Part shown: positions 1,400-62,431 of the stretch, one piece after another
Position numbering within the stretch: position 1 is the stretch's first letter
Layout: the number at the start of each line of letters is the position of its first letter
From: a phage
Length of the DNA stretch: 64,000 nucleotides
Sequence record: OZ335960.1
Reading direction: 5' to 3' (one strand)
The notes under the pieces: model-generated
What the model was told of the DNA's origin: nothing
Databases searched by the model: none
The model's input: the letters and a program-made list of their open reading frames with translations, nothing else
Translations under genes and position numbers: made by a program

Positions 1400-1440
1400 G
1401 ATAGTTGTATAGTACCACAGTATGCTTTGGTTGTAAACCG
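1400..1440 (-). promoter_or_regulatory. T4-type early promoter (-35 GTTTACA, -10 TACTAT) upstream of motA
   Basis: Member of conserved ~45-bp repeat; -35 rc at 1432-1438, -10 rc at 1406-1413. Confidence 0.55.
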
Positions 1441-1461
1441 TTTTGTGAAAAAATTTTTGAA

Positions 1462-1489
1462 ATAAAAAAGGGAGAGCCTCAGCTCTCCC
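1462..1489 (-). terminator. intrinsic terminator hairpin
   Basis: GGGAGAGC/GCTCTCCC stem followed by U-run on minus strand, downstream of gene 52 unit. Confidence 0.6.
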
Positions 1490-1494
1490 TAAAA

Positions 1495-1644
1495 TTACTG
1501 CATGACTGTGATAACTGTCATGATAACACGTTGAATTCCGAACGCAAGAAGACCTCCTGCTACGGCAGGAACAACACCTAAACCCGCCAGTAAAATGCTA
1601 CCAGATACTAATGCAGCGCTTGTAATACCAATGAATGGACTCAT
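1495..1644 (-). CDS. small hydrophobic protein, 49 aa
   Basis: ATG overlaps gene 52 stop (ATGA); MSPFIGITSAALVSGSILLAGLGVV...; ends just before terminator. Confidence 0.35.
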   Translation of the reverse strand: MSPFIGITSAALVSGSILLAGLGVVPAVAGGLLAFGIQRVIMTVITVMQ

Positions 1645-2969
1645 TTGATTTCCTCTAAATCTTTGGTGTATTCTGTAACTACATCAGTAGTTTTCCAATA
1701 TTCGTTTTCTTCTTTCTTAGCTTTAGCTTCTTCGGCAAGTTTCTTTGCTTCGTCGGAAGTCATATGAAAAATATTCATTCCGACTAGTTTATCAACATAA
1801 GAAGAATACATATCAATTTTAGAAAGTTCTTCGGTCAGTTCTTTGCGAGTTTTACCTTGCACAACAATTTCACCTGAAATTACTTTCTTAATGAAATGTG
1901 CCTTGGCAAAAGCTAAACGAAATGCTGATTCAGTTTCTTTGATTTTGTTATCAATTCGTTTTTGGACATAAGTTTTACGAACTTCAACGAAGTCTTTGAT
2001 TAAATCAACTACATTATCGTAAACTTGCAGCTTTCCTTTCTCATTAATAACGGTGATATTCTGGGAACGACGCTCAATCAACCCAAAGTCTTTCATGATT
2101 TTTGCGTGGCGTTCTTCTTCGTTATCGCTCAAAGAATATTCTTTGCGGAATTTAACTTTGAAGCCAAAACCATGCTCACCACAAGCATCATCCCACGTAA
2201 TGAAGCCTTTATCTTCAAGCGGGTCTAAGATTTTACTCACATAAGTTTCACGATCATACTTATACGGAATCTCAGTGATATGCATTTGAGTTCGTGAAGT
2301 AAACTTGTATGTTCCACGAATTTCATATTGACCGTCAATTTCAACGACTTCACCACGAAATTCTGGGAATTCTACCTTCGGTTTAGTTACTTTCTTTCCT
2401 TGAAGAGCTTGCAATACAGCTTTCTTGACAGAAGAAACACTATGAGGAAGAATGTAAGTTGCATAACCAGTTGCAATACCGGAAACACCATTAAGAAGAA
2501 CAGTAGGAATAATAGGCAAATAGAAAGCAGGCGGAATGTGTTCTTTATCTTGATGTACCGGAGCATATTCAGTATCTTTATATACACTATAGAAATTTTT
2601 ACTTACACGAGCAAAAATATAACGACTTGCCGCTGCTTTTTGAACGGTACGAGAACCAAAGTTTCCTTGACCATCTAACAAAGGAAAGTTATTATTCCAA
2701 GTATTAGCCATCAAAGCACCTGCGTCTTGCGCAGAGTTTTCACCATGATGATATCCAAGGTCTGCTACACCACCTGCAATAGAAGCGAGTTTGTGAAACT
2801 TATCTTTATTTCCTCGTGCCAAATCAAGAGCTCGAGCAATAACAAATCGTTGAACTGGCTTAAATCCATCAATCATATTTGGGATAGCACGATTTTCAAC
2901 CGTGTACATAGCATAAGCCAATGCTTCATTATCAATGATACTTTTTAAATCGCGATTATTCAGTTGCAT
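1641..2969 (-). CDS. 52: DNA topoisomerase II medium subunit gp52
   Basis: 442 aa as in T4 gp52; GyrA-like N-terminal motif AIPNMIDGFKPVQR. Confidence 0.9.
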   Translation of the reverse strand: MQLNNRDLKSIIDNEALAYAMYTVENRAIPNMIDGFKPVQRFVIARALDLARGNKDKFHKLASIAGGVADLGYHHGENSAQDAGALMANTWNNNFPLLDGQGNFGSRTVQKAAASRYIFARVSKNFYSVYKDTEYAPVHQDKEHIPPAFYLPIIPTVLLNGVSGIATGYATYILPHSVSSVKKAVLQALQGKKVTKPKVEFPEFRGEVVEIDGQYEIRGTYKFTSRTQMHITEIPYKYDRETYVSKILDPLEDKGFITWDDACGEHGFGFKVKFRKEYSLSDNEEERHAKIMKDFGLIERRSQNITVINEKGKLQVYDNVVDLIKDFVEVRKTYVQKRIDNKIKETESAFRLAFAKAHFIKKVISGEIVVQGKTRKELTEELSKIDMYSSYVDKLVGMNIFHMTSDEAKKLAEEAKAKKEENEYWKTTDVVTEYTKDLEEIK

Positions 2970-3106
2970 AAATTTACCATACTAGTGAATGTAGTGCCAT
3001 AATAACATCAGAAATGAAAAGCACGACTTGAATTAATCCGAACATTACTCCATAATATAGTGCTACCAATAAAGTAGCAAGGGCTAATGAATAGCCCAAG
3101 ATTTTC

Positions 3107-3265
3107 TTAATCATTAGTAGATAACAACACAAATGTTAAATATGCACACATACCCTGGGCTAAAGCTTGTGAAAACACACTGCTAGCATCAATACAGATA
3201 GTTAAAACACATGCTACTATCCAACAAACAAATGAAATAACTCCTAATAATTTTGCGATATTCAT
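3107..3265 (-). CDS. small membrane protein, Ac-like paralog (52 aa)
   Basis: Internal ATG of track ORF 3107..3295 with SD GAGGAG; hydrophobic; shares ...SVF.QA.AQG motif with adjacent ac. Confidence 0.5.
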   Translation of the reverse strand: MNIAKLLGVISFVCWIVACVLTICIDASSVFSQALAQGMCAYLTFVLLSTND

Positions 3266-3275
3266 AATATTCTCC

Positions 3276-3431
3276 TCAACTATTTTTAGAACCAATGTAC
3301 GCGAATAATGATAAAATCGCTAATACGCCCTGAGCTGATGCTTGCAAAAATACTGAAGTTTCTCCAGTTATTACTGTTCCGATGCATAAAAAGAACCAAC
3401 AGAAAAAGGCTATACCGTGAACAAATTTCAT
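3276..3431 (-). CDS. ac: small membrane protein Ac (acridine sensitivity), 51 aa
   Basis: Hand-translated MKFVHGIAFFCWFFLCIGTVITGETSVFLQASAQG...; 51 aa and position directly downstream of stp as in T4. Confidence 0.5.
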   Translation of the reverse strand: MKFVHGIAFFCWFFLCIGTVITGETSVFLQASAQGVLAILSLFAYIGSKNS

Positions 3432-3438
3432 ATTTTCC

Positions 3439-3519
3439 TCACTGGCGTCCGAAGACGCCTTTGGTTTTAAGATTATTACGATAGAACTGCATCACGTGTT
3501 CGTTATGGAAATTACTCAT
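3439..3519 (-). CDS. stp: Stp peptide (26 aa), activator of host anticodon nuclease PrrC
   Basis: Hand translation [26 protein letters not shown] matches the T4 Stp peptide as I recall it; ATG overlaps ndd stop. Confidence 0.75.
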
Positions 3520-4568: not shown

Positions 4569-4682
4569 TCACATAAATCCAAAGTAAGCGTTTAATACAT
4601 CAATCATTAAAACGATTGGGAATATACTCAAAACTACTAGTATTATAACTACATTCCATATAGCTTTAACAATCTTTTTCAT
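4569..4682 (-). CDS. small membrane peptide, 37 aa
   Basis: MKKIVKAIWNVVIILVVLSIFPIV...; SD GGAGG; the longer track ORF 5' part is read-through of the early promoter repeat. Confidence 0.45.
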   Translation of the reverse strand: MKKIVKAIWNVVIILVVLSIFPIVLMIDVLNAYFGFM

Positions 4683-4702
4683 TTTCTGTTCCTCCGTAGT
4701 TG

Positions 4703-4742
4703 ATAGTTGTATAGTACCACAGAGGAACAGTCTTGTAAACAA
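4703..4742 (-). promoter_or_regulatory. T4-type early promoter
   Basis: Conserved repeat GTTTACAagactgttcctctgtggTACTATAC on minus strand. Confidence 0.55.
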
Positions 4743-4957
4743 CTTTTTTAAAAATATTCGTAATAAATGTGAATACCAATCACTACTGCCGAAACTTGCG
4801 CAACCCACCACGCACAAGCAATAAGCACAGAATTCAAAATTTTCATAATAACCTCATTACAAAAGTAAATGTTAAACAAATTAATGGAATACTAATTAAC
4901 CAAACAAAACACCACCACAATGAACTCATAGTTCAATCTCAACGATTTTCATTTTAC

Positions 4958-5176
4958 TCAATAATCTGCTAAAAGATCGACGATTGCATCACGAAGACAC
5001 TTATTCGCAATACGTTTAAGAGCAATTTCAGTTTCTGGAGCATTTTGAATAATCATTGAATTCAATTCAGCCTCAGCAAACTGAAGTTCTTTAACTAATT
5101 CAGCTTTATATTTTCCTTGCCCTTTCTTAGCTTTTGCTCGTTTTAATTCAGCTGTAGTAAACATTTTATTCTCCAA
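4958..5176 (-). CDS. hypothetical protein, 72 aa
   Basis: Six-frame ORF directly downstream of early promoter with SD GGAG. Confidence 0.55.
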   Translation of the reverse strand: MENKMFTTAELKRAKAKKGQGKYKAELVKELQFAEAELNSMIIQNAPETEIALKRIANKCLRDAIVDLLADY

Positions 5177-5189
5177 ATCCGTATCAGTT

Positions 5190-5231
5190 GATAGTTGTAT
5201 AGTACCACAGTCCTTGTGGTATGTAAACCGT
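5190..5231 (-). promoter_or_regulatory. T4-type early promoter
   Basis: -35 GTTTACA / -10 TACTAT; spacer contains CCACA..TGTGG inverted repeat. Confidence 0.55.
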
Positions 5232-5245
5232 TTTGTGAAAATTTT

Positions 5246-5803
5246 TTAAATGGAAAGATACCATCCGTTGTAGTTGCTTTTTCTTACAACCTTACGAAGG
5301 TCTTCTCTATCACCGATGAACTTCGGAGTGTACTGGATGACACCTGGGTGAATTTCTTTAGTGTTGAATATAATTATACAGTCAGCGACCTGATGATTCA
5401 GAATGGGCCCTAGATTTATTCCAGAACCATATGGATACTCTCCGCTGCATCCTGTTGTTACAGAAATCCAACGTGAGTCAGTTTGATGTGTCTTAACTTC
5501 TACACGAAGCCCGCAATATCTTGGATGCGCCAATACATCCCATGCGTATGTATACGGGTCATTAACATCCTCTTGGCCTTTGTTAACATACCCGCTTAGC
5601 CAATCTGCTACAAAAAACTCTGCGTACACCGCGATACGACATCTTTCAATAACTTCTGCTTTATCCTGATTTGGATTTTGTTTTAAAGAGTATCTTGCTG
5701 TATCAGCAATTTTGACCTTCATTTCACTAGTCAAGTCACTGTTCGATAGGGTAAATGTCGGAATCTGAAATAGTCTCTGTAAACCCGGATTCGTTTTCTG
5801 CAT
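5246..5803 (-). CDS. denB: endonuclease IV DenB
   Basis: 185 aa as T4 DenB; position next to rIIB side. Confidence 0.75.
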   Translation of the reverse strand: MQKTNPGLQRLFQIPTFTLSNSDLTSEMKVKIADTARYSLKQNPNQDKAEVIERCRIAVYAEFFVADWLSGYVNKGQEDVNDPYTYAWDVLAHPRYCGLRVEVKTHQTDSRWISVTTGCSGEYPYGSGINLGPILNHQVADCIIIFNTKEIHPGVIQYTPKFIGDREDLRKVVRKSNYNGWYLSI

Positions 5804-6065: not shown

Positions 6066-6077
6066 AATTTTTCCTTA

Positions 6078-6098
6078 AAACAAAAGGGCCGAAGCCCC
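6078..6098 (-). terminator. UUCG-loop hairpin terminator
   Basis: minus strand GGGGCUUCGGCCC followed by U-run. Confidence 0.5.
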
Positions 6099-6103
6099 TT
6101 ATT

Positions 6104-6298
6104 TTATTTGAATTGTGCAATTCTTTTTTCTAAACAATCTGCGTAAGATTTCATTGAGATGAACTGTGAAAGCAGTAATTCTTGCTCAACTTCATTAATC
6201 GTTAGAAACTTTGTGCTTTCTAAAAATTTGCTCAGTGCATTAATTTTGAGCATTAATTGATCGTATTCTTCTTTTACTCGTGCTTGATAACCTAACAT
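6104..6298 (-). CDS. hypothetical protein, 64 aa
   Basis: Six-frame ORF bracketed by two UUCG hairpins. Confidence 0.5.
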   Translation of the reverse strand: MLGYQARVKEEYDQLMLKINALSKFLESTKFLTINEVEQELLLSQFISMKSYADCLEKRIAQFK

Positions 6299-6326
6299 AA
6301 TTTTCCTTAGTTAAGGGCCGAAGCCC

Positions 6327-7265
6327 TTATTTAAATTGTTCAGTAACGTCTTCAACTACTTCGTATTGGCAGGTACGCATTTTAGCATCATTGTAATCAA
6401 TCGGAATTGATACTACATCGCGAGGATGTACTTTAACTTTTACAACTCGACTGGTTGAACTGCCAAAGTGACGAATATAAGATTTAGAACACACATGCAG
6501 ACCATGAGAACAAGTTTGTGTATCATCGTCATTCACGCGAGTACGTGGCATTTTAACTACTTTACCGGGACTGTTATCAAAAGTATTTGAATGACAGTCA
6601 AAGTAATTGCTGCGAACTACTTTCCAAGCATAGAAGTAACCATCTTCTGTAATTTCAATATCGTTTGCTACCAAGAAATCAAAGAGTCGAGATACTGCTT
6701 TTTGGCTTGGGTTTTCCAACAGATTTTCCAAGAACGGAAAATAAAATTCAAAGTTTTCACCTTTTTCCATCGAATCGAGAATACGATCAACTAAACCAGA
6801 CCGCAATTCAATATTTTGATAGAACAAGCTTCCACCTTCAATTCGAACATCACCGGAAATATATTTTTCAACAGCGCGGCGAACATTAATTTTTTGTGCC
6901 GCTTCTTCCAATTTATCTGCAACAAGCAGATTAAGAATTTCCTGGAAGTTTGAATGAGTATTAGGAGTTGCGTTATAAGTTACACCGTCAACAGTAATTG
7001 AAATGAATTTTTTAGATGCATTCCAAATAATGTCAGATTTAGCAACTGGAGCGATAGCTGTATCGCTATTAACTTTAACCGTAATATCACCACTAATAGT
7101 AACTTTAGAGCGCTCAGCTTCTTCAGCATTTTTCAAAACACGACGGATTGTGTCAACCGATACACCTTGCCAATCAGCCAATTCCTGCTGGGTGTAATTA
7201 CCACTTGAATACAGTTTGACAATTTCAGCTTGTTCGTTTTTGGTCAGGCATTTAATATTGTACAT
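6327..7265 (-). CDS. rIIB: rIIB membrane-associated protein
   Basis: 312 aa as T4 rIIB; immediately downstream of rIIA. Confidence 0.85.
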   Translation of the reverse strand: MYNIKCLTKNEQAEIVKLYSSGNYTQQELADWQGVSVDTIRRVLKNAEEAERSKVTISGDITVKVNSDTAIAPVAKSDIIWNASKKFISITVDGVTYNATPNTHSNFQEILNLLVADKLEEAAQKINVRRAVEKYISGDVRIEGGSLFYQNIELRSGLVDRILDSMEKGENFEFYFPFLENLLENPSQKAVSRLFDFLVANDIEITEDGYFYAWKVVRSNYFDCHSNTFDNSPGKVVKMPRTRVNDDDTQTCSHGLHVCSKSYIRHFGSSTSRVVKVKVHPRDVVSIPIDYNDAKMRTCQYEVVEDVTEQFK

Positions 7266-9687: not shown

Positions 9688-9721
9688 CAATTAATTATAC
9701 CACATCCTTGTGGTAAAGTAA
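9688..9721 (-). promoter_or_regulatory. early promoter (-35 GTTTAC, 18 nt, -10 TATAAT)
   Basis: Minus strand GTTTACtttaccacaaggatgtggTATAAT. Confidence 0.6.
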
Positions 9722-9722
9722 A

Positions 9723-11540
9723 CTACTGGCTCATCCATTCTTTACGAAGGTCAGCATTATCTCCCATGAGCATTTCAAAAAGCTCTTTCCAGTTCTCAGG
9801 AAGTTTAACAACATCATATACCGGGTTTTGAATCATCTCACGATATTCAGATTTTTCCAAAGAGCCAAGTCCCTTAATATAACGGATGCTATGTTTAGGT
9901 AGAGCATCTTTGGCACTCTCATATTCAGCGACTGTATAAAACCATTCTTGTTTTTTACCGACCTGGGCGATGATTACAGGAGTTTTGACGAAACGAATTC
10001 TTCCTTGTTCAAACAGTTCTGGCCAATTACTAAAAAATCCGAGCAGAGAAGGATAAATGCTTCCTAGACCATCGTGGTCAGCATCGGTCATAATAGCAAT
10101 ATTATGATAATTCAAGTTTTCAGCTTTTTCACCAAGAACTAATCCAGTGATTGCGCAAATATCAAATAGTTCTTTGTTTTTAAGCATATCAGCATATGAC
10201 ATACCCCAGCTATTAAGAACTTTACCACGCAATGGATAACCACCATGAAGTTCTTTATCACGAACATCAATAAGATATCCGATAGCAGAATCACCCTCAG
10301 TCAAGAAAAGAGTAGTATCAGCATCTTTACCGCAAAGATTCGCTTTAATGTGTTTATGAACCTTAGCTTTAGAAGCCTTTTTAGCTGCTTTAGTTTCTGC
10401 TGCCTTTTCTGCCGCCAATTTACGAGCCAAGGCAGCTTCAATAATTGGCATTAAAATTGCTTCATTATTTAAAATAGCACGTGAAATCTTTTTAGCATCA
10501 AGCTGAATATGACTACGAATTTCACCAAATGGAGAAGTCAAACGCTCTTTAGTCTGAGAATCAAATCGCATGTTTTTCATATCACGAACAAACATAACGA
10601 TAGTCAAACATTCTTTAACCCGTGCTTTAGTTACATCAATTTTAAACTTGCGTTTGATTTGTGGAATAAGGTCTTCACAAATATCATCCATAACGCAGTC
10701 AATGTGATGGCCACCATTCTTAGTATGAATGTTATTGACGTATGTTAATTGACGAAAACCATCCGGTGAACGACCGACTGCAATAGAACAGTTTTCCTGT
10801 TCTTGAACGATAGCATGCTCATCATATTGGCGTGCATATTTCTTAAAATTACCCTGAACCTTTTTACCATTAAAGGTAAATTGAATATCAGGATAAACTA
10901 CTGCAAGTGTCTGGAGACGATCCAGTGTAATGTCAAGATAAACTTGAGATAGCTCATTAGTTTCAAATGACATAAAATCAGGAATGAAAGTAACACGAGT
11001 TCCTTTCCATTTTCCAGGAATAGTTTCCCATGATTTATTTTCCATGCCATTTGAACAACGAACTACAATATTATTTTGACCGTCGCCAGTTTCACCGACA
11101 AACATCACAGAAAAAATGTTAGTTAAACTAGAACCAACACCGTTCATACCGCCAGTGACGCGTTCTTTATCATCACCAAAGTTACCACCTGCTTTTGGAA
11201 TAGTCCATGCAGCAACAGGACCAGGAATTTCTTCACCAGTAGGTGTTTTAACCATCGCTTGCGGAATACCACGACCGTTATCTTCAACTGTTACTTGATT
11301 GTTTTTGATAGTAACATTAATTTTATTCGCGAATTTAAACTTAGTACGAATACCTTCATCTACTGAGTTATCGATAATTTCATCAATAAGCTTAACAAGA
11401 CCAGGTACATACTGAACACTTTCCCATTTACCAAACAGAAAGCGCTCATGCATTTCATTAGCAGAAGAACCAATGTACATGCCGCTACGCTTTTTGATAT
11501 GTTCAATATCGCTCAGAATTTTAATTTCATTCTTAATCAT
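9723..11540 (-). CDS. 39: DNA topoisomerase II large subunit, fused 39/60 form (605 aa)
   Basis: GyrB-like ATPase N-terminus; C-terminus ...NIAIMTDADHDGLGSIYPSL contiguous, no split or bypass; ATG at 11540. Confidence 0.9.
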   Translation of the reverse strand: MIKNEIKILSDIEHIKKRSGMYIGSSANEMHERFLFGKWESVQYVPGLVKLIDEIIDNSVDEGIRTKFKFANKINVTIKNNQVTVEDNGRGIPQAMVKTPTGEEIPGPVAAWTIPKAGGNFGDDKERVTGGMNGVGSSLTNIFSVMFVGETGDGQNNIVVRCSNGMENKSWETIPGKWKGTRVTFIPDFMSFETNELSQVYLDITLDRLQTLAVVYPDIQFTFNGKKVQGNFKKYARQYDEHAIVQEQENCSIAVGRSPDGFRQLTYVNNIHTKNGGHHIDCVMDDICEDLIPQIKRKFKIDVTKARVKECLTIVMFVRDMKNMRFDSQTKERLTSPFGEIRSHIQLDAKKISRAILNNEAILMPIIEAALARKLAAEKAAETKAAKKASKAKVHKHIKANLCGKDADTTLFLTEGDSAIGYLIDVRDKELHGGYPLRGKVLNSWGMSYADMLKNKELFDICAITGLVLGEKAENLNYHNIAIMTDADHDGLGSIYPSLLGFFSNWPELFEQGRIRFVKTPVIIAQVGKKQEWFYTVAEYESAKDALPKHSIRYIKGLGSLEKSEYREMIQNPVYDVVKLPENWKELFEMLMGDNADLRKEWMSQ

Positions 11541-11565
11541 CACTTATCCTCGTTTGGTTTCGGGA

Positions 11566-11593
11566 ATATTATACTCCGGTAATCATAAAGCTA
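11566..11593 (-). promoter_or_regulatory. middle-type promoter (MotA-box-like GCTTTA, 12 nt, TATAAT) upstream of gene 39
   Basis: Minus strand tAGCTTTAtgattaccggagTATAAT. Confidence 0.45.
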
Positions 11594-11611
11594 AAGGCCC
11601 GAAGGCCTTTT
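11594..11611 (-). terminator. UUCG-loop hairpin
   Basis: GGCCUUCGGGCC on minus strand after upstream ORF stop. Confidence 0.45.
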
Positions 11612-11882
11612 ATTTAAAACGGATAGTCGAATCCTTGAAGAATAGACCAGAACATACGGTTCCTTCTACTTTCTGCCCGGTAGGTCCAATAGCACGAAAT
11701 CCAGTATGTTGGAAATCATTTTCAGAGCAACCGAACCAATTGTATCCAGTGATTTCAATATTAGTAAAACCGCTTGAAGACAAAACTTTGGTTGCATTAT
11801 CAGCATCAGTACATCCTGCTAAAGACACTGCTAATACTAATGCCGCGATAGAACGATTAACATATTTCATAATTTCACTCAA
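11610..11882 (-). CDS. predicted lipoprotein, 90 aa
   Basis: Signal peptide plus lipobox LAGC. Confidence 0.55.
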   Translation of the reverse strand: MSEIMKYVNRSIAALVLAVSLAGCTDADNATKVLSSSGFTNIEITGYNWFGCSENDFQHTGFRAIGPTGQKVEGTVCSGLFFKDSTIRFK

Positions 11883-13075: not shown

Positions 13076-13357
13076 TTAATTGAACAGTGGAGCGATGCGT
13101 TTCAGAAGAGTGGCAGCACCTTTGGCGAATTTTACATCATGAAAAACAGTTTCTTCTTCCGTTACAACACGAACTTTAATGTTTTCACAATCCCAATTTT
13201 TACGAACAATCTTCAAAAGCTGCAGTAAATCTTTACATTCAGCAATATCGATAACACATCCACGAGAATCTTCCATTATCGCACGATAACCGTAAGCCAT
13301 ACCATAATCGTTGAAAGATTGTTCGATGATAATTAAGTTTTCCATTTTATTCTCCAA
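13076..13357 (-). CDS. hypothetical protein, 93 aa
   Basis: Six-frame ORF downstream of degenerate early promoter repeat. Confidence 0.5.
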   Translation of the reverse strand: MENKMENLIIIEQSFNDYGMAYGYRAIMEDSRGCVIDIAECKDLLQLLKIVRKNWDCENIKVRVVTEEETVFHDVKFAKGAATLLKRIAPLFN

Positions 13358-13442
13358 ATTGTTTTCTGTATCAGTAGTTGATATTGATATAGTACCATAA
13401 TCAACTACTGATGTATATAGTTTTATGAAAAAATTTTAAACT

Positions 13443-13964: not shown

Positions 13965-14012
13965 ATTTTATACTCCACGGGACCATTATACTCTGGTCCC
14001 AAGAGTTTGTAA
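13965..14012 (-). promoter_or_regulatory. early promoter
   Basis: Minus strand GTTTACAaactcttgggaccagagTATAAT. Confidence 0.5.
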
Positions 14013-14016
14013 ACTA

Positions 14017-14559: not shown

Positions 14560-15062
14560 AATTGTCTCATTTCAATAAAATCTACAAGTTCAGCATGGGA
14601 TTTACGGAACATTACTTGGTGTCCGCCAATGATAACTTCATCTTCAGGAACTTCGTATATAGCGAGATAAAATCCTTTAGAAGATAATTCTTCACGCTCT
14701 TCTCGTGTGAACCATCTCATCATATCATATTCGCTAGCGAAAGCAAAATGATAAAGAGCTATAAACCATCCTGGAATATGATATTCTACTCCAACATAAT
14801 CTTTCTTGAACTTAGTATTAATTACTATATTAGCGTTTTTAACTAATAGTTTATCTTCATGTGGTACAGGAATTCTTTTATTATCATCACTATGATGCAT
14901 AAAATTAGGTCTGCTATAACCTACCCGTAATAGCCACTCTTCGCTCCATGAATCTATTATACTCCTGTATGGCGTTATTTGAACACAAAGATTTCGACGT
15001 ATTGTTATAGCATCTTCATAATCAAGAATACTAAACGATGATTCAACACGATAAATTTTCAT
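14556..15062 (-). CDS. hypothetical protein, 168 aa
   Basis: ATG at 15062 with SD GAGGA; track 5' extension overlaps the promoter. Confidence 0.5.
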   Translation of the reverse strand: MKIYRVESSFSILDYEDAITIRRNLCVQITPYRSIIDSWSEEWLLRVGYSRPNFMHHSDDNKRIPVPHEDKLLVKNANIVINTKFKKDYVGVEYHIPGWFIALYHFAFASEYDMMRWFTREEREELSSKGFYLAIYEVPEDEVIIGGHQVMFRKSHAELVDFIEMRQL

Positions 15063-15087
15063 TTTATTATCCTCAGTAGCTATGGTG

Positions 15088-15121
15088 TTATAATACCACA
15101 ACTAACCGAGGAAGTAAACAA
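15088..15121 (-). promoter_or_regulatory. early promoter (-35 GTTTAC, -10 TATTAT)
   Basis: Minus strand GTTTACttcctcggttagttgtggTATTAT. Confidence 0.5.
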
Positions 15122-18944: not shown

Positions 18945-18980
18945 TTATACTATAACATTTTTACTTCAGCTTGTAAACAA
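18945..18980 (-). promoter_or_regulatory. early promoter upstream of srd
   Basis: Minus strand GTTTACAagctgaagtaaaaatgttATAGTAT. Confidence 0.45.
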
Positions 18981-20269: not shown

Positions 20270-20283
20270 ATACTTCAGAAGCT

Positions 20284-20316
20284 ATCATATCATTGTTAGG
20301 AAGGAAAGTAAACAAC
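20284..20316 (-). promoter_or_regulatory. early promoter upstream of modB
   Basis: Minus strand GTTTACtttccttcctaacaatgaTATGAT. Confidence 0.5.
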
Positions 20317-22420: not shown

Positions 22421-22426
22421 GTAAAA

Positions 22427-22451: not shown

Positions 22452-22457
22452 TTGAAA

Positions 22458-41444: not shown

Positions 41445-41460
41445 TAAAGGGCCGAAGCCC
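41445..41460 (-). terminator. UUCG-loop hairpin after a-gt
   Basis: GGGCUUCGGCCC on minus strand. Confidence 0.5.
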
Positions 41461-41461
41461 T

Positions 41462-42664: not shown

Positions 42665-42713
42665 TTAATATCCTCATTGTTTTGGTTTATTTTACCAAAA
42701 ATTTATAAAGCAA

Positions 42714-45047: not shown

Positions 45048-45080
45048 ACATTATCCTCAATTACATTAAAATTTTATTAT

Positions 45081-45100
45081 CCAAAAGGGCCGAAGCCCTT
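45081..45100 (-). terminator. UUCG-loop hairpin
   Basis: GGGCUUCGGCCC plus U-run. Confidence 0.5.
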
Positions 45101-45299
45101 AGCTAAACTTTTTTGCACCCTTCCAGCCTTCGTACATCATTGCGGCTGATATTAATATTGCTCCTGAGCAACTTGAATATTTGTGATTCCAAAACCAGTT
45201 TAGAAAAACTTCGTCATCAATACCTTGGGCTATCATATTTTCAAAGAACTGACGACGAGATTCAGCAATTCGTTGCGATAATTTAGATTCAGGATTCAT
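45099..45299 (-). CDS. hypothetical protein, 66 aa
   Basis: Six-frame ORF. Confidence 0.45.
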   Translation of the reverse strand: MNPESKLSQRIAESRRQFFENMIAQGIDDEVFLNWFWNHKYSSCSGAILISAAMMYEGWKGAKKFS

Positions 45300-45515
45300 T
45301 TAAATTTTCCAGTTACCATTTTCATCAATAAATTTAATCCAATCATTTACTGACCACTTGGTCGTATCACCTTTTGGAGCAACATTTAAAGTGTATAATC
45401 CTTGTTTAAAAAGCATGCGTTTGATATTCATATTTTCCTCAGCTGTAACGATAGCACTCGTTTGATTTACGCTTAGCAACTCGTTGAGAAGTATTGTAAT
45501 CAAAATCATCGTCAA
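45300..45515 (-). CDS. hypothetical small protein (probable start at internal ATG 45431)
   Basis: Internal start MNIKRMLF has SD GAGGAAAAT. Confidence 0.35.
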   Translation of the reverse strand: MTMILITILLNELLSVNQTSAIVTAEENMNIKRMLFKQGLYTLNVAPKGDTTKWSVNDWIKFIDENGNWKI

Positions 45516-45732
45516 TGTAAACTGATTTTTTCAACTTTCTTACTTCACCACGTAATTGGCGATTTAACTCATCTTTAACTTCTGAATCAATGCCTTTCAT
45601 TCTACGCCATTTATCAGAGCGAAAAATGTTTTCGACCATATCTTTATGACTTACACCATCAGGAGCTTTACGCTTTCCAAAATAGTCATAATCACGCACT
45701 TTTAAATCTTTACGACGATACGTTTTACCCAT
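45439..45732 (-). CDS. basic protein, 97 aa
   Basis: ATG at 45732; Lys/Arg-rich. Confidence 0.45.
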   Translation of the reverse strand: MGKTYRRKDLKVRDYDYFGKRKAPDGVSHKDMVENIFRSDKWRRMKGIDSEVKDELNRQLRGEVRKLKKSVYIDDDFDYNTSQRVAKRKSNECYRYS

Positions 45733-45901: not shown

Positions 45902-45927
45902 ATCAAATCCTCAAAGGCAATTCATAT

Positions 45928-45963
45928 GTTAATAATACCACAGTTTGAACTTGTTGTAAACAA
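45928..45963 (-). promoter_or_regulatory. early promoter
   Basis: Minus strand GTTTACAacaagttcaaactgtggTATTAT. Confidence 0.5.
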
Positions 45964-46035
45964 CTTTGTGAAAATTATTTTAGGGAACGATAAGAAGGGA
46001 ACGATAGCTTAGAATGGTAATATACAGAATGTGAG

Positions 46036-46999: not shown

Positions 47000-47470
47000 T
47001 TAATCATGTTTCCACACCCCATCGGTATTTGACCAAAGTCGCTGATTATCTGATCCTCGCCACAGCTTTTTGGTCGGAAGATTTTTCTCATACTTCCCAT
47101 CAATAATAACATCAACATATTTAAGCATTTCTAGTTGTTTAATATCTTCAAACTTATATCCTGTCCATAACCAAATGCTTTTATTGGGATAAAGATTTTT
47201 TACTGTTTGAACAATACAATGAACAACATCTCGGTTATCAGGATAGAGAGGGTCTCCTCCAGTTATAGTTAATCCTTCTATATAATCATTATTCAAACAT
47301 TCAATTAATTGTTCTAGTGTTTCACCAGTGAATGGAACGCCATTTCTAGCATTCCATGTTGATTTATTATAACACCCTTCGCATTTATGCAAACAACCAG
47401 TAACGAAAAGAACGACCCTGCATCCAGGGCCATTCACAAAATCGCAGGGATAAAATCTATCGTAATTCAT
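47000..47470 (-). CDS. nrdG: anaerobic ribonucleotide reductase activase NrdG
   Basis: 156 aa; radical-SAM cysteine cluster CLHKCEGC. Confidence 0.9.
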   Translation of the reverse strand: MNYDRFYPCDFVNGPGCRVVLFVTGCLHKCEGCYNKSTWNARNGVPFTGETLEQLIECLNNDYIEGLTITGGDPLYPDNRDVVHCIVQTVKNLYPNKSIWLWTGYKFEDIKQLEMLKYVDVIIDGKYEKNLPTKKLWRGSDNQRLWSNTDGVWKHD

Positions 47471-49284
47471 TGGTGTTTAACCCTATGCATGATTTCTTTA
47501 TTTTTGCCAAGATTAAATCCACGTTCGTTCGGATTTCCTAAATAACCGCAAGTTCTTCTTATTGTGTTCATCTTTTTAGGATCAGTTTCTCCACAAATAG
47601 AACAAACAAATCCGTTTTCAGTAGGAGTCATTTCATGTGTACTTCCGCATGTAAAACACTTATCTACTGGCATATTAACGCCAAAATAATCTAAATGTTG
47701 TGCAGCATAATCCCATACAGCCTCAAGACCTTTTAGGTTATTTTTCATATCAGGAAGTTCAACATAAGAAATGTGACCACCTGTCGCAATGAAATGATAC
47801 GGTGCTTCGCGAGAAATCTTTTCAAACGGGGTGATATTTTCTTCTACTGAAACATGGAAACTGTTAGTGTACCAGCCTTTATCAGTAACATCCTTTACAC
47901 TTCCATATTTTTCAGTATCAAGTTTACAGAAGCGATAACAAAGGTTTTCAGCAGGAGTAGAATACAAGCTAAAAGCAAAACCAGTTCTTTCAGACCACTG
48001 CTTAAGACGAGCATTCATTTTAGTTAAAATTTCCTGTCCAATATTACGTCCGACAAGAATATTCAATTCGTGAATTCCAATGTATCCCAAAGACACTGAA
48101 CTTCTACCGTTTTTAAATAACTCAATTATGTCGTCATCAGGTTTAAGACGAACCCCGAATGCACCTTCTTGGTAAAGAATAGGAGCTACAGTTGCTTTAA
48201 CACCCTTTAAAGAACTAATTCTACACATCAAGGCTTCAAAACACAAATCCATTCGTTCATTAAATAGCTCAACAAATTTCTGTTCATTGAACTGTGTTCC
48301 AATATAAGAATCTAACGCAATACGAGGAAGATTCAGTGTTACAACACCAAGATTATTACGTCCATCAAGAATTTCATTACCAGTCGAATCTTTCCATACA
48401 CTCAAGAAACTACGACAACCCATTGGAGAAACAGGAATAGATGAGCCGGTGATAGCTTTATTGTTCTTAGCTGAAATAATATCAGGATACATTCTTTTGC
48501 TTGCACACTCTAGAGCAAGCTGCTTAATATCATAGTTCGGGTCGTCTTTATAAAGATTAACACCTTCTTCAACGAACATAACAAGTTTAGGGAAAATAGG
48601 AGTTATCCCATCACGACCAAGACCTTTAATACGATTTTTCAGAATTGCTTTCTGAATCATTCGTTCAGTCCAATCAGTTCCCGTACCAAATGTAATGGTT
48701 ACAAAAGGCGTTTGTCCGTTTGAACTAAAGAGAGTATTTACTTCATATTCATAAGCTTGGAATGCATCGTATACGTCTTTTTCTGTTTTAGACTGGGCGT
48801 AATTCAACGCATCAGCGATTTGCCATTTTTCTGCATCCTCAATATGTTTTGCATAGGTGCGTTTAACATAAGGAGAAAGTACTTTATCTACATTCGCAAA
48901 AGTCGTTCCGCCATATTGATGGGAAGCAACCTGTGCAGTAATTTGCGCCATAATTGCAGTAGCAACGCCGATTGATTTAGGAGTTTCAATCTGTGCATTA
49001 CCGAGCTTAAATCCGTTTTCAAGCATTCCTTTTAAATCTACTAAACAGCAATTAGTAAATGGAAGAGCAGGGGAATAATCAATATCATGGAAATGGATAA
49101 TTCCGCTTTCATGCGCTTTCATAATAAAAGACGGGACCATATTTTTGGCAATGTGTTTAGACACAATACCAGCCATAAGGTCCCGTTGAGTTGGAAAAAC
49201 ACGAGAATCTTTATTAGCATTCTCGTTTAAAAGGTCTTTATTAGTTTTATGAATCAATCCTTCAATTTCTTTTTCAATTGTCAT
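47467..49284 (-). CDS. nrdD: anaerobic ribonucleotide reductase NrdD
   Basis: 605 aa uninterrupted; glycyl-radical motif RRTCGYLG; C-terminal zinc cysteines. Confidence 0.95.
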   Translation of the reverse strand: MTIEKEIEGLIHKTNKDLLNENANKDSRVFPTQRDLMAGIVSKHIAKNMVPSFIMKAHESGIIHFHDIDYSPALPFTNCCLVDLKGMLENGFKLGNAQIETPKSIGVATAIMAQITAQVASHQYGGTTFANVDKVLSPYVKRTYAKHIEDAEKWQIADALNYAQSKTEKDVYDAFQAYEYEVNTLFSSNGQTPFVTITFGTGTDWTERMIQKAILKNRIKGLGRDGITPIFPKLVMFVEEGVNLYKDDPNYDIKQLALECASKRMYPDIISAKNNKAITGSSIPVSPMGCRSFLSVWKDSTGNEILDGRNNLGVVTLNLPRIALDSYIGTQFNEQKFVELFNERMDLCFEALMCRISSLKGVKATVAPILYQEGAFGVRLKPDDDIIELFKNGRSSVSLGYIGIHELNILVGRNIGQEILTKMNARLKQWSERTGFAFSLYSTPAENLCYRFCKLDTEKYGSVKDVTDKGWYTNSFHVSVEENITPFEKISREAPYHFIATGGHISYVELPDMKNNLKGLEAVWDYAAQHLDYFGVNMPVDKCFTCGSTHEMTPTENGFVCSICGETDPKKMNTIRRTCGYLGNPNERGFNLGKNKEIMHRVKHQ

Positions 49285-53972: not shown

Positions 53973-54005
53973 CATTATACCACATCCTTGTGGCAAAGTA
54001 AACTA
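53973..54005 (-). promoter_or_regulatory. early promoter (-35 GTTTAC, -10 TATAAT)
   Basis: Minus strand GTTTACtttgccacaaggatgtggTATAAT. Confidence 0.6.
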
Positions 54006-56916: not shown

Positions 56917-56939
56917 TTTGTGTTCCTCCGTAGTTGATA

Positions 56940-56976
56940 GTTGTATAGTACCACAGAGGAACAGTCTTGTAAACCA
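56940..56976 (-). promoter_or_regulatory. T4-type early promoter
   Basis: Conserved repeat; -35 rc 56968-56974, -10 rc 56943-56950. Confidence 0.55.
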
Positions 56977-57380: not shown

Positions 57381-58361
57381 TTATTTCAGAAGAGTAACCT
57401 CAGCGATTTCTTCCCAACCGTTTTTGTCGGTCATAATAAAGTCAGCAAGATAAAGAGCAGTACGCAGTGAAACATTGCGTAAACGATTAACATTAACTTT
57501 CATCCATGATAATGCTTTATAAGTTTCTTCATCAGAAAGACCGCGCTTTTGCATCATGTCAGTTGAAAGAATAACATCTTCAACCCTGACCATAATTTCT
57601 TCATTAGTGTGAACACCCAAATCCAAATAAACCGAGCGGGACACTAATGCTTGTAAATGTGGAGCAAGTTTAGTACCACGGTCTAATTCGCGGTCAATGT
57701 CAACGTTTGTGATAAAAACAATCGTTCCTTTAAATTCAAACTCACGCTCAATGCCTTTTTCTTCTAAGTAAGAAGATGCAGTGCTCCAGCAGACTTTACG
57801 GGTCTCTCCGGTGTCCAGAGCGGCTTTTAGAAGATTAAGAATGTCCATATCAGAGAAAACATCCACATCATCAATCAAAAGGACAGAATTCTCTTCACGA
57901 TTATTCCAAAGCTGCTCATAAAGACCAATACCAGAGATTTTACCATTAATGCTTTTATATTCAATGTATCCAATATCATTTGCTTTATTCAAAGCTTTAT
58001 CTAAAGAATACGTTTTACCAATACCTGCTGCGCCAGAGATAATCAATGAACGAATATTTCCATTAATAATACCATTCGTCATCATTCCCATAACATTAAA
58101 TCTTTTATTAATGCGGGTTTTCATATCTTCATACGATTCTTTAACTTCTTCAACTTTTACACCATCATATGAAATATCTGATTTGTAAACCCAAACACCG
58201 CGACGTTTACCGTCAATTTCAACAAAAACTTTACCATCTCCTTGTGCATCTACCGGAGCATTATCTGGGAACCATTCGCCTAAGAGCTCAAAAGTTCCAG
58301 AGATTTCTTTGCCGAAGTAGATACCCTTATTGATAGTTACAGTTTTCATTTTATTCTCCAA
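57381..58361 (-). CDS. AAA+/P-loop ATPase with N-terminal ~90-aa extra domain, 326 aa
   Basis: Walker A GAAGIGKT, Walker B VLLIDDVD, sensor-1-like FITN; own early promoter and SD. Confidence 0.65.
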   Translation of the reverse strand: MENKMKTVTINKGIYFGKEISGTFELLGEWFPDNAPVDAQGDGKVFVEIDGKRRGVWVYKSDISYDGVKVEEVKESYEDMKTRINKRFNVMGMMTNGIINGNIRSLIISGAAGIGKTYSLDKALNKANDIGYIEYKSINGKISGIGLYEQLWNNREENSVLLIDDVDVFSDMDILNLLKAALDTGETRKVCWSTASSYLEEKGIEREFEFKGTIVFITNVDIDRELDRGTKLAPHLQALVSRSVYLDLGVHTNEEIMVRVEDVILSTDMMQKRGLSDEETYKALSWMKVNVNRLRNVSLRTALYLADFIMTDKNGWEEIAEVTLLK

Positions 58362-58379
58362 ATCCGTATCAGTTGATAG

Positions 58380-58416
58380 TTGTATAGTACCATAAAGCTT
58401 TATGCTTGTAAACAGT
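58380..58416 (-). promoter_or_regulatory. T4-type early promoter driving the ATPase gene
   Basis: Conserved repeat; -35 rc 58408-58414, -10 rc 58382-58389. Confidence 0.55.
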
Positions 58417-58435
58417 TTTGTGAAAAATTTTTAAA

Positions 58436-59477: not shown

Positions 59478-59935
59478 TCAGCCTTATATTCAATAACAGG
59501 ACATACTTTAGCTTTACGCGCTTTTAAAAATTCGACGATAATAGATTTCTTAGGTTGAATAGGAGGTAAACCTTTATACGCCCTATCAATATTTTCTACA
59601 TGTAAAGCATAATCCTTTTTCCATTTATAATCTTTATATTTTTCATGCAGTTGTGCAGGAATAACAAATGAACCAATAATAAGTAAAACAAGCAAAATGG
59701 CAAGTATAAATGCTGATGGAATAAGAGTCCATAGACTGCTAAAAATAATCCAACGCTGTAAACTTTCTGCGCAGATAATAGTTAGACCTGCGAGTATAGT
59801 ACATCCGAAAAAAGAAACGAAAAATGTAGGGATAACAATAGACCAAAAGTATGCACATAATGTCTTAGGTCGTTTCCATTCGTCGTTAAACATTTTGAAT
59901 AATTTATAATGCCAAGAGTTTTCATTAATAATCAT
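59474..59935 (-). CDS. multi-pass membrane protein, 153 aa
   Basis: Two long hydrophobic blocks; stop overlaps NTase ATG (ATGA). Confidence 0.5.
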   Translation of the reverse strand: MIINENSWHYKLFKMFNDEWKRPKTLCAYFWSIVIPTFFVSFFGCTILAGLTIICAESLQRWIIFSSLWTLIPSAFILAILLVLLIIGSFVIPAQLHEKYKDYKWKKDYALHVENIDRAYKGLPPIQPKKSIIVEFLKARKAKVCPVIEYKAE

Positions 59936-59937
59936 AA

Positions 59938-60459
59938 TTATCCTTTCATTGAAGGTGTAACAGTTGTTAAATACTTAATCATAGCTTCAGCTTCTGATTT
60001 TGATAATGAAATTTCTCCATTGTTTTGACGAATAGAAATAAAATCCGGATGACGGTCACCACCAGCTTTTAAAATACACATATAAGTATCAGTTTCATCT
60101 TCAATATCTGAAATGATTGAAGCAGTTCCGCATGAATGCGGTTTTTGATAAATCAATGCAGCTTTTCTTCCGCCGTTTGACTGTTCATAAACTTTTAACA
60201 CATCAAACAAATCGCTTCTTTTATCAATAGCTAAGATGTTGTTTTCATCTTCAATGTTAAATCCTTCGGATACTTCATAAAGTGTCACCCATAAATCGCC
60301 AATATCAATGACAGCATTCACCTTTCCATGATTTTCAAGAGCATTACAAATTTTCTTAATTTCATCATAACTCATTTTAATAATATCATCTCCTTGAATA
60401 AAGAAGATGTCATTTTTAAATTCAACGCGAATTAAACCACTTCCACTTGAAATAAACAT
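59938..60459 (-). CDS. hypothetical protein, 173 aa (paralog A)
   Basis: C-terminal SKSEAEAMIKYLTTVTPSM shared with next ORF. Confidence 0.5.
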   Translation of the reverse strand: MFISSGSGLIRVEFKNDIFFIQGDDIIKMSYDEIKKICNALENHGKVNAVIDIGDLWVTLYEVSEGFNIEDENNILAIDKRSDLFDVLKVYEQSNGGRKAALIYQKPHSCGTASIISDIEDETDTYMCILKAGGDRHPDFISIRQNNGEISLSKSEAEAMIKYLTTVTPSMKG

Positions 60460-60957: not shown

Positions 60958-60999
60958 TTCACCAAAAAGGGACTAACTTCTAATACTAATCGTTTCATA

Positions 61000-61278
61000 T
61001 TAATCCTTTTTACTAACATGAATTTGTTCTAAAATTTTAGAGTATTCCTTTGTATCAGATTTACGCACAATCGATACGCTATAAGGCATACTATCAGTGT
61101 CTTTTATAAAGCGTTCCAAATGACACTCTAACAAAATTTCTGGATTATAAATCGTGTACATCAAATTACCTGTTGCTCCACGATATTGGCAGATTTCTAC
61201 TGATTGAGCATCATTCCACAATTTTGTTAAGACTAAATCACCTACTTCTAATTTCGGAAAGCTCACATTATTCACCAA
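61000..61278 (-). CDS. hypothetical protein, 92 aa
   Basis: Six-frame ORF. Confidence 0.45.
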   Translation of the reverse strand: MVNNVSFPKLEVGDLVLTKLWNDAQSVEICQYRGATGNLMYTIYNPEILLECHLERFIKDTDSMPYSVSIVRKSDTKEYSKILEQIHVSKKD

Positions 61279-61453
61279 TTAAAGTTTCAATATAAGAATC
61301 AAGATTTACTTTAGCTTCTTCCATAAGAGTTTTGTATTTAATCTTGTTAGCATATCCAGAGAAAGCTGATTCATCAATAACTGTTGATGTATGAACAGCT
61401 TTACTATACATCTCAATTAATTCTCTTAATTTAAAAGCCTGCTCACTTGTCAT
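61268..61453 (-). CDS. small helical protein, 61 aa (small paralog family member)
   Basis: MTSEQAFKLRELIEMYSKAV... Confidence 0.45.
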   Translation of the reverse strand: MTSEQAFKLRELIEMYSKAVHTSTVIDESAFSGYANKIKYKTLMEEAKVNLDSYIETLIGE

Positions 61454-61583
61454 TACATACTCCTTTGAATAATATCAATAATGTTGTTCACCAAATTATA
61501 CGTAAACATTGGGTAATTATATTGAATCATCACATACACAACAAACAAAACTTTCATTCTCTTCTCCTTGGCAGTTGACAAGA

Positions 61584-61617
61584 TTACTATACCATAACCT
61601 TGCCAACTTGTAAACCA
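61584..61617 (-). promoter_or_regulatory. early promoter
   Basis: Minus strand GTTTACAagttggcaaggttatggTATAGT. Confidence 0.45.
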
Positions 61618-61791
61618 TTAAATGACGTTTTCAATAAAATTCTGAAGCTTTGTGTGAGCATCAACCATGATTTTCATTTCTTCCTTTGCGAAAGCTGTAC
61701 CTCTTTCACGAGAAGAATACTCATAGTCAGAAACTGCATTAGCATATTCTTCAATTAGCTTCATTAAAAACATCTGCTTTTCAGTTTTCAT
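61618..61791 (-). CDS. small helical protein, 57 aa (small paralog family member)
   Basis: Hand translation MKTEKQMFLMKLIEEYANAV...; below track cutoff. Confidence 0.4.
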   Translation of the reverse strand: MKTEKQMFLMKLIEEYANAVSDYEYSSRERGTAFAKEEMKIMVDAHTKLQNFIENVI

Positions 61792-61975
61792 TATTCCACC
61801 TAATCATTTCAAGATATTGAACTAACTTAGCTTTAGATTTATCCAAATCTTTTTTAGCTGCTGCTATACCTTCGTATGAATATCCTTCACAATGCTCAAC
61901 TGCCAATTGGTATGAATCTGTTTCAACATCACGTGCTAATTTAATGATTTTTTCAAACTGTTCACGTGTTAGCAT
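61781..61975 (-). CDS. small helical protein, 64 aa (small paralog family member)
   Basis: MLTREQFEKIIKLARDV... Confidence 0.45.
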   Translation of the reverse strand: MLTREQFEKIIKLARDVETDSYQLAVEHCEGYSYEGIAAAKKDLDKSKAKLVQYLEMIRWNNEN

Positions 61976-61977
61976 AC

Positions 61978-62181
61978 TTAAACTCTCGTATTATGATCAA
62001 TAATTTCATCAAGAAACATATCTAAAGCTTCTACAGCATTATCAACTTTAGCTTCAAGTTCTTCAGCACCTTTATTTGCAATGCCTGACGAAAACCAAGC
62101 AAAGTCACTAAGTTCCTCATCTGCTTTGCGAATTAAAGCTACCAATTCTTTAATTTTATCTGCTTGTTCAATGCTAATCAT
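61978..62181 (-). CDS. small helical protein, 67 aa (small paralog family member; start could be 62217)
   Basis: [20 protein letters not shown]...; ATG overlaps upstream stop. Confidence 0.45.
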   Translation of the reverse strand: MISIEQADKIKELVALIRKADEELSDFAWFSSGIANKGAEELEAKVDNAVEALDMFLDEIIDHNTRV

Positions 62182-62369
62182 TATTCCACCACATATGAAA
62201 GAGAGAATATTGCACACGCCATATGAGTTGCAGCTTCATCACACATATTATAACGTTTCTTAAGAAGTTCTACAAGTTCTTCACTAGTAACTTCATCCAT
62301 GTTGACGAAAAAATCACCATTAATGATGACGTAGATATTTCCTTCTTGATTAAGTGCTTCAATTTTCAT
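62181..62369 (-). CDS. hypothetical protein, 62 aa
   Basis: ATG at 62369 with SD GAGGAG; downstream of early promoter. Confidence 0.45.
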
Positions 62370-62395
62370 GATGTTCTCCTCTTTATCCGATGGTT

Positions 62396-62431
62396 GTATA
62401 GTATCACAGCTCAAATGGAAAGTAAACCGGT
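62396..62431 (-). promoter_or_regulatory. early promoter (-35 GTTTAC, -10 TACTAT)
   Basis: Minus strand GTTTACtttccatttgagctgtgaTACTAT. Confidence 0.5.

Follow-up and report, generated by a model that had tools for sequence, protein, structure and literature searches.

Repeated early-promoter cassettes in a Tequatrovirus early-gene region and apparent exchange of sequence between them

An element of about 45 bp recurs, in identical or diverged form, at the starts of many genes in a 64,000-nucleotide (nt) stretch of phage DNA (sequence record OZ335960.1; the whole of this stretch is referred to here as the window). The question raised by this element is whether its copies are alike solely because of a common function as early promoters or also because they have exchanged sequence. 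Analysis of the window and its relatives indicated that the repeats are very probably T4-like immediate-early promoters, set in partly shared cassettes that exchange sequence by the modular shuffling described for PeSLs, which combine an early promoter (Pe) with a stem-loop. Both the promoter role and the recombination role of T4-type cassettes are already known (PMC2988021; PMC2839356; PMC4122927). The finding correctly rediscovers an element and an idea that were both in the literature, and it carries little weight as a discovery: T4 early promoters are among the best-studied promoters of bacterial viruses, and papers of 2010 and 2014 had set out their part as crossover points in the shuffling of small accessory genes. 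The window is nevertheless a clean and quantifiable example, with three copies homogenised to 42 to 54 identical bases at distances of 26 to 52 kb, and chimeric cassettes in relatives narrow the crossovers to a core of ~22 nt.

Megablast identified the window as the early-gene region of a Tequatrovirus, with 97-98% identity to phages ECp13, Sfk20 and pSs-1. The alignment with T4 was colinear, at ~94% identity, and extended from motA to tk by way of rIIB/rIIA, gene 43 and the nrdC cluster. All genes of the window lie on the minus strand, the GC content is ~35% and the GC skew is uniformly negative. A pattern scan of IMG/VR yielded only 8 loci, with two allelic forms of the ndd.4 promoter. As these were too few for statistics, regions were taken from five GenBank genomes (T4, PaulHMueller, BCH953P4, LF73P3 and ES12), which together with the window constitute the six-genome comparison. 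The available GenBank copy of T4 is without promoter features, and T4 promoters were placed with the weight matrix described below.

Copies of the repeat and the predicted promoters within them

A search for the 42-mer GTTTACAAGACTGTTCCTCTGTGGTACTATACAACTATCAAC with up to 3 mismatches detected three occurrences, each an exact match on the minus strand, at 4699-4740, 31051-31092 and 56933-56974; shuffled sequences gave none. The earlier note, made from the letters alone, had described near-identical copies at six sites. The family is real and far beyond chance, but only these three copies are exact and the other three are partial, with repeat copies beginning at ~1398, 5188 and 58373 (plus-strand numbering). 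These three share an A/T-rich upstream element, GTTTACA and TGGTACTATACAACTATCAAC, and have 17-nt spacers that are mutually unrelated (accaaagcatactgtgg, taccacaaggactgtgg and agcataaagctttatgg). The positions that had been given were 2-7 nt off the left ends at 1398, 4700, 5188, 31052, 56934 and 58373. Between pairs of the six cassettes the longest exact stretches were 22-54 nt, the maximum of 54 nt being that of ndd.4 and nrdC.8. Repeat family D1 comprises 7 copies, each 93 nt long, and families D1 and D2 take in the three partial sites. Diverged copies elsewhere, which had also been proposed, were present at 13378-13436, 45921-45979 and 62387-62445. Overall, the initial observation is partly confirmed: of the six copies three are exact and three partial, and many others are diverged.

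A scan for generic sigma-70 hexamers gave 79 and 81 matches versus 78 and 87 expected. Such a scan is uninformative in DNA of 35% GC, so that a promoter call depends on an extended, phage-specific pattern, and a position weight matrix derived from the clear cassette copies was used, with a cut-off of 12 bits and an expectation from shuffles. The strict pattern GTTTAC-N17-TANNAT had 0 matches in the window because the true register is TTTACA-N17. The matrix detected 21 sites above 12 bits in the window, all on the gene (minus) strand, against 0.05 expected. Each genome of the six-genome comparison had 21-24 sites on a single strand, and the whole LF73P3 genome had 35, again all on one strand. 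The -35 element, which is close to TTGACA, is TTTAC(A/T) in 20 of the 21 window sites, preceded by G in 19 of these and by T at 39934, with the motB site deviating (TATACA). The spacer is 17 nt at every site, the -10 is TA(C/T)(T/A/G)(A/G)T in all, and TG occurs two bases 5' of the -10 in 14/21. A UP-element consensus (aAaaAtTTTT.A.aaA) precedes the -35 and is strongest in the cassette subfamily. A Shine-Dalgarno (SD) sequence and ATG follow the predicted start by 18-37 nt at 19 sites; no gene start lies near two weak intragenic sites, 39934 and 45521. Intrinsic terminators lie directly upstream of the sites at 1437, 22417, 58412 and 62426.

T4 early promoters have been described as UP/-35/TGn/-10 promoters (PMC2988021), and each window site had a T4 counterpart, one-to-one by position. 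The counterpart of site 15118 is T4 8217, which by map position appears to be P8.1, a promoter cited as mutationally analysed (Hinton 2010, PMC2988021). This layout and these counterparts supported the early-promoter reading first made from the letters. In layout, orientation, gene-by-gene positions and near-identical sequences, the window sites resemble the known T4 early promoters (motA, P8.1; PMC2988021) and differ in nothing essential; three copies here have become identical over 42-54 nt. A literature search for a genome-wide 5'-end map of T4 did not find one. From T4 biology, host sigma-70 RNA polymerase would be expected to recognise the UP element, GTTTAC(A/T), the 17-nt spacer and the extended -10 TGn-TA(C/T)(T/A)AT, and transcription of the minus strand would start ~6-7 nt past the -10.

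The cassette subfamily comprises motA, ndd.4, the 68-amino-acid (aa) gene at 4958-5164, imm.1, nrdC.8 and nrdC.10, plus diverged members at motB and rI.-1. Its members share the first transcribed bases, ACAACTATCAAC, and have two or three types of leader, each ending in a GGAG SD and ATG. The cassettes and adjoining terminators are as follows.

1365-1460, minus strand: motA cassette; -35 GTTTACA (first T at 1437), spacer accaaagcatactgtgg, TGG-TACTAT, shared leader ACAACTATCAAC, SD GGAG, ATG at 1367; UP element present; 50.4 bits; matrix counterpart T4 163672
1469-1490, minus strand: terminator hairpin AGGGAGAGCTGAGGCTCTCCCT and T-run, adjoining the motA promoter upstream; stem-loop part of a PeSL
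4680-4762, minus strand: ndd.4-like cassette containing the exact 42-mer; ATG at 4682, opening a 37-aa membrane peptide; spacer CTGTTCCTCTGTGGT pairs with SD region ACTACGGAGGAACAG
5162-5250, minus strand: cassette of the 68-aa gene (RB32ORF266c-like); 52.8 bits
13343-13440, minus strand: diverged member of the motB region; -35 TATACA, TGG-TACTAT, leader ATCAATATCAACTACTGATACAG; 13-nt inverted repeat around the -10
31026-31114, minus strand: imm.1 cassette containing the exact 42-mer; ATG at 31028; 54.4 bits
56914-56996, minus strand: nrdC.8 cassette containing the exact 42-mer; SD-sequestering hairpin as in ndd.4
58347-58435, minus strand: nrdC.10 cassette; palindromic spacer CATAAAGCTTTATG; 51.0 bits
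58443-58462, minus strand: terminator hairpin AGGGAGCCTTCGGGCTCCCT and T-run, upstream of the nrdC.10 promoter
62367-62460, minus strand: diverged member at rI.-1; upstream terminator AGTCTCCTTCGGGAGACT at 62443-62460

The 3' ends of three cassettes carry a second signal. Strong cleavage by RegB/S1 in T4 early mRNAs has the consensus GG*AGRAYARAA (PMC3014915), and perfect matches to GGAGRAYARAA were found three times in the 64 kb versus 0.44 expected, all at cassette 3' ends and overlapping the SD (GGAGAATAAAA; minus strand, 5164-5174 for the 68-aa gene, 13345-13355 for motB and 58349-58359 for nrdC.10). Most early leaders of the window likewise carry GGAG, as do the known strong sites; the ndd.4 and nrdC.8 leaders (GGAGGAACA), in contrast, fall outside the long consensus. 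Folding predicted that locally initiated leaders are unstructured. Cassettes with a RegB site thus probably carry both a promoter and a site of mRNA inactivation, and a cassette of this type could act as both the switch-on and the switch-off of an immediate-early gene.

Probable exchange of sequence between cassettes

Comparison of the homogenised copies with T4 indicated conversion between distant paralogues. The ndd.4 promoter occurred in three forms, cttcc+TACC, cctct+TACC and cctct+ACAA, of which the last is that of nrdC.8. From the spacer through the -10 to the initial transcribed bases, the window form of ndd.4 equals nrdC.8, and the T4 form is six linked substitutions away. Similarly, the imm.1 spacer in the window matches its own paralogues (the nrdC.8 type) and not its T4 counterpart. 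The T4 counterparts of the three homogenised copies differ among themselves at 1-3 spacer positions, and T4 ndd.4 also differs after the -10.

Chimeric cassettes were detected among the relatives. The strong motA cassette and motA are separated in ES12 and LF73P3 by an inserted 75-aa gene (MKFKIENEIV...) that has a weaker promoter of its own, and both this promoter and the strong cassette have TACTAT...CTATCAAATAAATGAACTGAAAC as -10 and leader. In LF73P3, the cassette upstream of the insert has an nrdC.10-type spacer. The insertions were located by genome comparison.

LF73P3 ~2090-2610 and ES12 ~1770-2290 (numbering of the fetched regions), minus strand: insertion of the 75-aa gene

Spacers of the motA type and of the nrdC.10 type were each found with the nrdC.10 leader and gene and were each also found with the 75-aa gene inserted upstream of motA. 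Since all four combinations of spacer and downstream part exist, crossovers are placed inside the shared core TGGTACTATACAACTATCAA.

The genes behind the cassettes also varied. The cassette of the 68-aa gene (site 5227) drives three different genes in different phages, and the replacement behind it has its right-hand junction at 5186, inside the cassette; slur04 and PaulHMueller have two of the alternative genes in tandem. Across relatives, the interval between this cassette and that of ndd.4 (5227-4739) differs by zero, one or two small genes and not by outright deletion. When an artificial query for the 5227/4739 junction was used, its halves were 0.5-0.7 kb apart in all of the best 12 records; a rare genome with the deletion may exist beyond those 12. 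Unique indel breakpoints were located in cassettes in 8 of 66 cases, the cassettes making up 4.1% of the window, which is a ~3-fold excess (p ~0.006 with breakpoints treated as independent), and an indel junction was observed in 5/8 family cassettes versus 1/13 other promoters (p = 0.014). The proposal that the cassettes are recombination substrates is supported, at the level of sequence, by the chimeras, the conversion and the junctions in the six-genome comparison.

These patterns resemble those reported for PeSLs. PeSLs were defined in RB49 and phi1 by Arbiol et al. (2010; PMC2839356), who mapped crossovers in PeSL mini-circles between the -10 and the ATG, and Comeau et al. (2014; PMC4122927) extended PeSLs to T4/PST, gave the consensus TTTACW-N17-TAYWAT and presented the ndd.4/.5 exchange as an example explained by PeSLs. 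The window cassettes are alike in being repeated composites of ~100 bp with an AT-rich region, an early promoter, an SD and an ATG, in fitting the consensus, in having crossovers between the -10 and the ATG, in sharing the ndd.4/.5 region as an example and in an association with small genes that are inserted, deleted or replaced among close relatives. In the passages of those papers that were consulted, no emphasis is placed on gene conversion between distant copies, which is seen here. The morons of lambdoid phages are similar in that a small gene, equipped with a promoter and a terminator, is inserted between other genes. However, moron flanks are unconserved and are not thought to drive mobility, whereas here the conserved cassette is itself the crossover site (PMC2839356).

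Several results weigh against this interpretation. Most indels relative to the window lie away from cassettes and consist of homing-endonuclease genes or, at gene boundaries, of single small genes, and the breakpoints behind the indel statistics are not strictly independent. A clean deletion from cassette to cassette was not seen in ~520 relatives. Deletions bounded by the repeats had been suggested as something to look for in related genomes, and none that was clean occurred between the nrdC.10 and nrdC.8 cassettes (58412 and 56973): an artificial query for this junction was covered to at least 80% in one place by 0/520 records, and hence no relative has the 1.4-kb deletion. A canonical upstream terminator is present at only 4/21 sites (2 of the 6 main cassettes), so that, in a difference from PeSLs, their stem-loop half is often missing. 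Finally, the generic sigma-70 hexamer scan does not lift the signal above background; we infer promoter function from sequence and from the correspondence with T4.

Selection for a very strong promoter and an efficient leader could produce similar copies without any exchange. The consensus of T4 early promoters extends past the canonical elements (PMC2988021), most of the 21 promoters remain stable from one genome to another, and the failure to find a cassette-to-cassette deletion in the ~520 relatives fits such an explanation. Nevertheless, spacer positions without known function are identical in three window paralogues and different in their T4 counterparts, the six linked substitutions convert the ndd.4 promoter to the nrdC.8 form, each of the four possible combinations of cassette halves is represented, and indel junctions fall inside cassettes. 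Selection without exchange is already weakened by the chimeric cassettes, and we consider it quite improbable. Were the cassettes instead sites of a site-specific recombinase or a small mobile element, and not of general homologous recombination, the clustering of crossovers within a short core would be expected, and a helper protein was raised as a possibility by Arbiol et al. (PMC2839356). The junctions, however, occur at several places in the cassette (between spacer and initial transcribed bases, in the core and at the SD/ATG), the inserted genes are without an accompanying recombinase gene, and T4 recombination has been reported on patches of <50 bp (Singer 1982, as cited in PMC2839356); a dedicated recombinase is very unlikely.

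A different role could be assigned to the segment ACAACTATCAAC after the -10, namely that of an operator or RNA target for a putative phage factor that shuts off early promoters, and this would be compatible with exchange between cassettes. The segment is identical in six cassettes, and the way in which early promoters are shut off has been described as incompletely understood (PMC2988021; PMC3014915), but only 6-8 of the 21 window early promoters carry it, relatives have alternative versions (TACCCTATCAA) at the same loci, and the factor and its binding are hypothetical, so that we regard this role as hardly probable. There is next to no chance that the repeat encodes LFTRLFLCGTIQLST in real proteins. 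Two mechanical open reading frames (ORFs) do run through the repeat, and the earlier note had called the resulting peptide spurious and assigned it to both; LFTRLFLCGTIQLST is indeed read in both, but the full 18 residues (FTKLFTRLFLCGTIQLST) are complete only in ORF 30648-31217, with ORF 4569-4817 holding LKKLFTRLFLCGTIQLST. Both ORFs open with a TTG a long way upstream, one of them overlaps the gene before it at that gene's end, the remaining copies are out of frame with any ORF, and good SD/ATG starts that match T4 gene starts lie just downstream of the repeat. As the peptide is upstream of these real start codons (31028 and 4682), it is spurious, and the repeated peptide LFTRLFLCGTIQLST was rejected as a candidate. 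Gene callers should avoid extending ORFs across cassettes.

Under the explanation that we favor, exchange between early-promoter cassettes, likeness of the copies would come from common function, common descent and sequence exchange together. The exact core of 22-54 nt would serve as a homology patch for the phage's own recombination machinery, and recombination there could lead both to gene conversion between copies tens of kb apart and to the insertion, removal or swap of small genes behind cassettes. Engineered T4-like therapeutic phages may rearrange at such cassettes.

Predicted hairpins enclosing the -10 elements

The promoter regions were folded over a span from -30 to just past the ATG, and the results were compared with those for RNA from the predicted +1. 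Very stable hairpins enclosing the -10 were predicted in 8 of 19 window promoters, with energies of -17 to -24 kcal/mol and z <= -4; RNA beginning at the predicted +1 was essentially unstructured. The inverted repeats and the 13 matrix sites outside the cassette subfamily are as follows.

4700-4735, minus strand: inverted repeat enclosing the -10 of ndd.4
56934-56969, minus strand: inverted repeat enclosing the -10 of nrdC.8
15062-15113, minus strand: inverted repeat enclosing the -10 of dexA
20250-20300, minus strand: inverted repeat enclosing the -10 of modA.2
13375-13412, 13980-14008, 25585-25617 and 61578-61610, minus strand: the other inverted repeats enclosing a -10
9694-9723, minus strand: rIIA.1 early promoter; GTTTACT, 17 nt, TGG-TATAAT
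13985-14014, minus strand: early promoter of the motB.1 region; -10 between GGGACC and GGTCCC
15090-15119, minus strand: dexA early promoter; counterpart of T4 8217; read-through hairpin covers the SD
18949-18978, minus strand: srd early promoter (matrix, six-genome comparison)
20284-20313, minus strand: modA.2 early promoter; read-through hairpin covers the SD and ATG
22389-22452, minus strand: mrh.2 early promoter; terminator GGACTCCTTCGGGAGTCC directly upstream (hairpin coordinates approximate)
25091-25120, minus strand: sp (spackle) early promoter (matrix, six-genome comparison)
25594-25623, minus strand: dmd early promoter; 15-bp inverted repeat around the -10
39906-39935, minus strand: weaker promoter-like site inside gene 47; 27 bits; kept in 6/6 genomes
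45493-45522, minus strand: weaker promoter-like site inside a 55.5-like gene; 27 bits
45932-45961, minus strand: 55.6 early promoter (matrix, six-genome comparison)
53974-54003, minus strand: early promoter of an nrdC.5-like gene; BCH953P4 and LF73P3 lack the downstream gene and have the junction at the cassette
61586-61615, minus strand: mobD.2a early promoter; inverted repeat of ~15 bp around the -10

In ndd.4, nrdC.8, dexA and modA.2, the 3' arm covers the SD and thus the GGAG needed by RegB. As the 5' arm lies in the untranscribed spacer, only read-through RNA from an upstream promoter can form the hairpin. With a fixed window of folding, strong folds were present in 5/19 initiation regions with an early promoter versus 1/75 without one (Fisher p = 0.001). 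In LF73P3, such a helix was detected in 11/35 promoters and was always stabler in the sense than in the antisense orientation (means of -21.1 and -13.2 kcal/mol). Across the main stems in the six genomes, 11 of 13 variable positions keep pairing via G-U (p = 0.011). These folding results point to a structure that would act in sense read-through RNA. A tentative and somewhat doubtful suggestion is that the hairpins tie translation, and perhaps RegB cleavage, to the transcript start, which would confine the gene to immediate-early expression driven by its own promoter.

Sequestration of a ribosome-binding site by this logic is well known from the T4 genes e, soc, 49 and I-TevI, which have an internal late promoter (PMC3014915). 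The window hairpins are like these in that the 5' arm is upstream of the local start and only the longer read-through RNA would hide the SD. They differ in that the promoter here is an early one and that, in about half of them, the 3' arm ends before the SD is reached. A literature search found no description of hairpins at early promoters, which the older T4 literature may already mention, and an Rfam scan of the whole window matched no family. If new, the promoter hairpins would add immediate-early genes to those under a type of translational control that is already known, and they are the sole lead here that is perhaps worth a bench test.

A further example was observed in LF73P3 at 132374, outside the range of the window, where the spacer TTTTCCTCTTGACTG of an early promoter pairs with the SD region AGTTAAGAGGAGAA (-21.4 kcal/mol). 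By position relative to the PaulHMueller annotation, this is taken to be the regB promoter, and the SD of its gene would be hidden in read-through RNA. The few strong folds among the control initiation regions include that of soc (22458-22703, minus strand), a known sequestered ribosome-binding site. The strongest control fold was at 37483, at the start of a 45.2-like gene (37295-37483, minus strand), with -19.3 kcal/mol and z = -5.5.

Other features of the window

A second repeat family, AAGGGCCGAAGCCCTT, forms intergenic GGGC-UUCG-GCCC tetraloop hairpins on the gene strand, some of which are followed by T-runs; these are probably common T4 terminator or stabiliser hairpins.

6076-6105, 6313-6340, 11586-11615, 33958-33987, 36128-36157, 41439-41468 and 45077-45106, gene strand: AAGGGCCGAAGCCCTT repeats

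The large subunit of topoisomerase II is encoded by a single 606-aa gene at 9723-11543, with 99.7% identity to the PaulHMueller protein. The T4 subunit is split between genes 39 and 60, with 60.1, a mobA pseudogene and translational bypass, and the 1.1-kb T4 segment that splits the gene is absent from the window. Relative to T4, the window is also without segF, dam, 61.2, mobB, mobC, the nrdD intron with I-TevII, and mobD. Most of the large differences between T4 and the window involve homing-endonuclease genes rather than promoter cassettes.

22741-24770, 42655-42680, 47450-47470, 48746-48749 and 59478-60441: loci of the missing T4 genes (window numbering)

In place of T4 segA and beta-glucosyltransferase, the window has a 282-aa gene at 28656-29504, whose product has 98.6% identity to a PaulHMueller protein annotated as beta-alpha-glucosyltransferase. 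A 207-aa gene at 40662-41285, after gene 47, is not found in T4, and its product has 99% identity to an annotated putative homing endonuclease.

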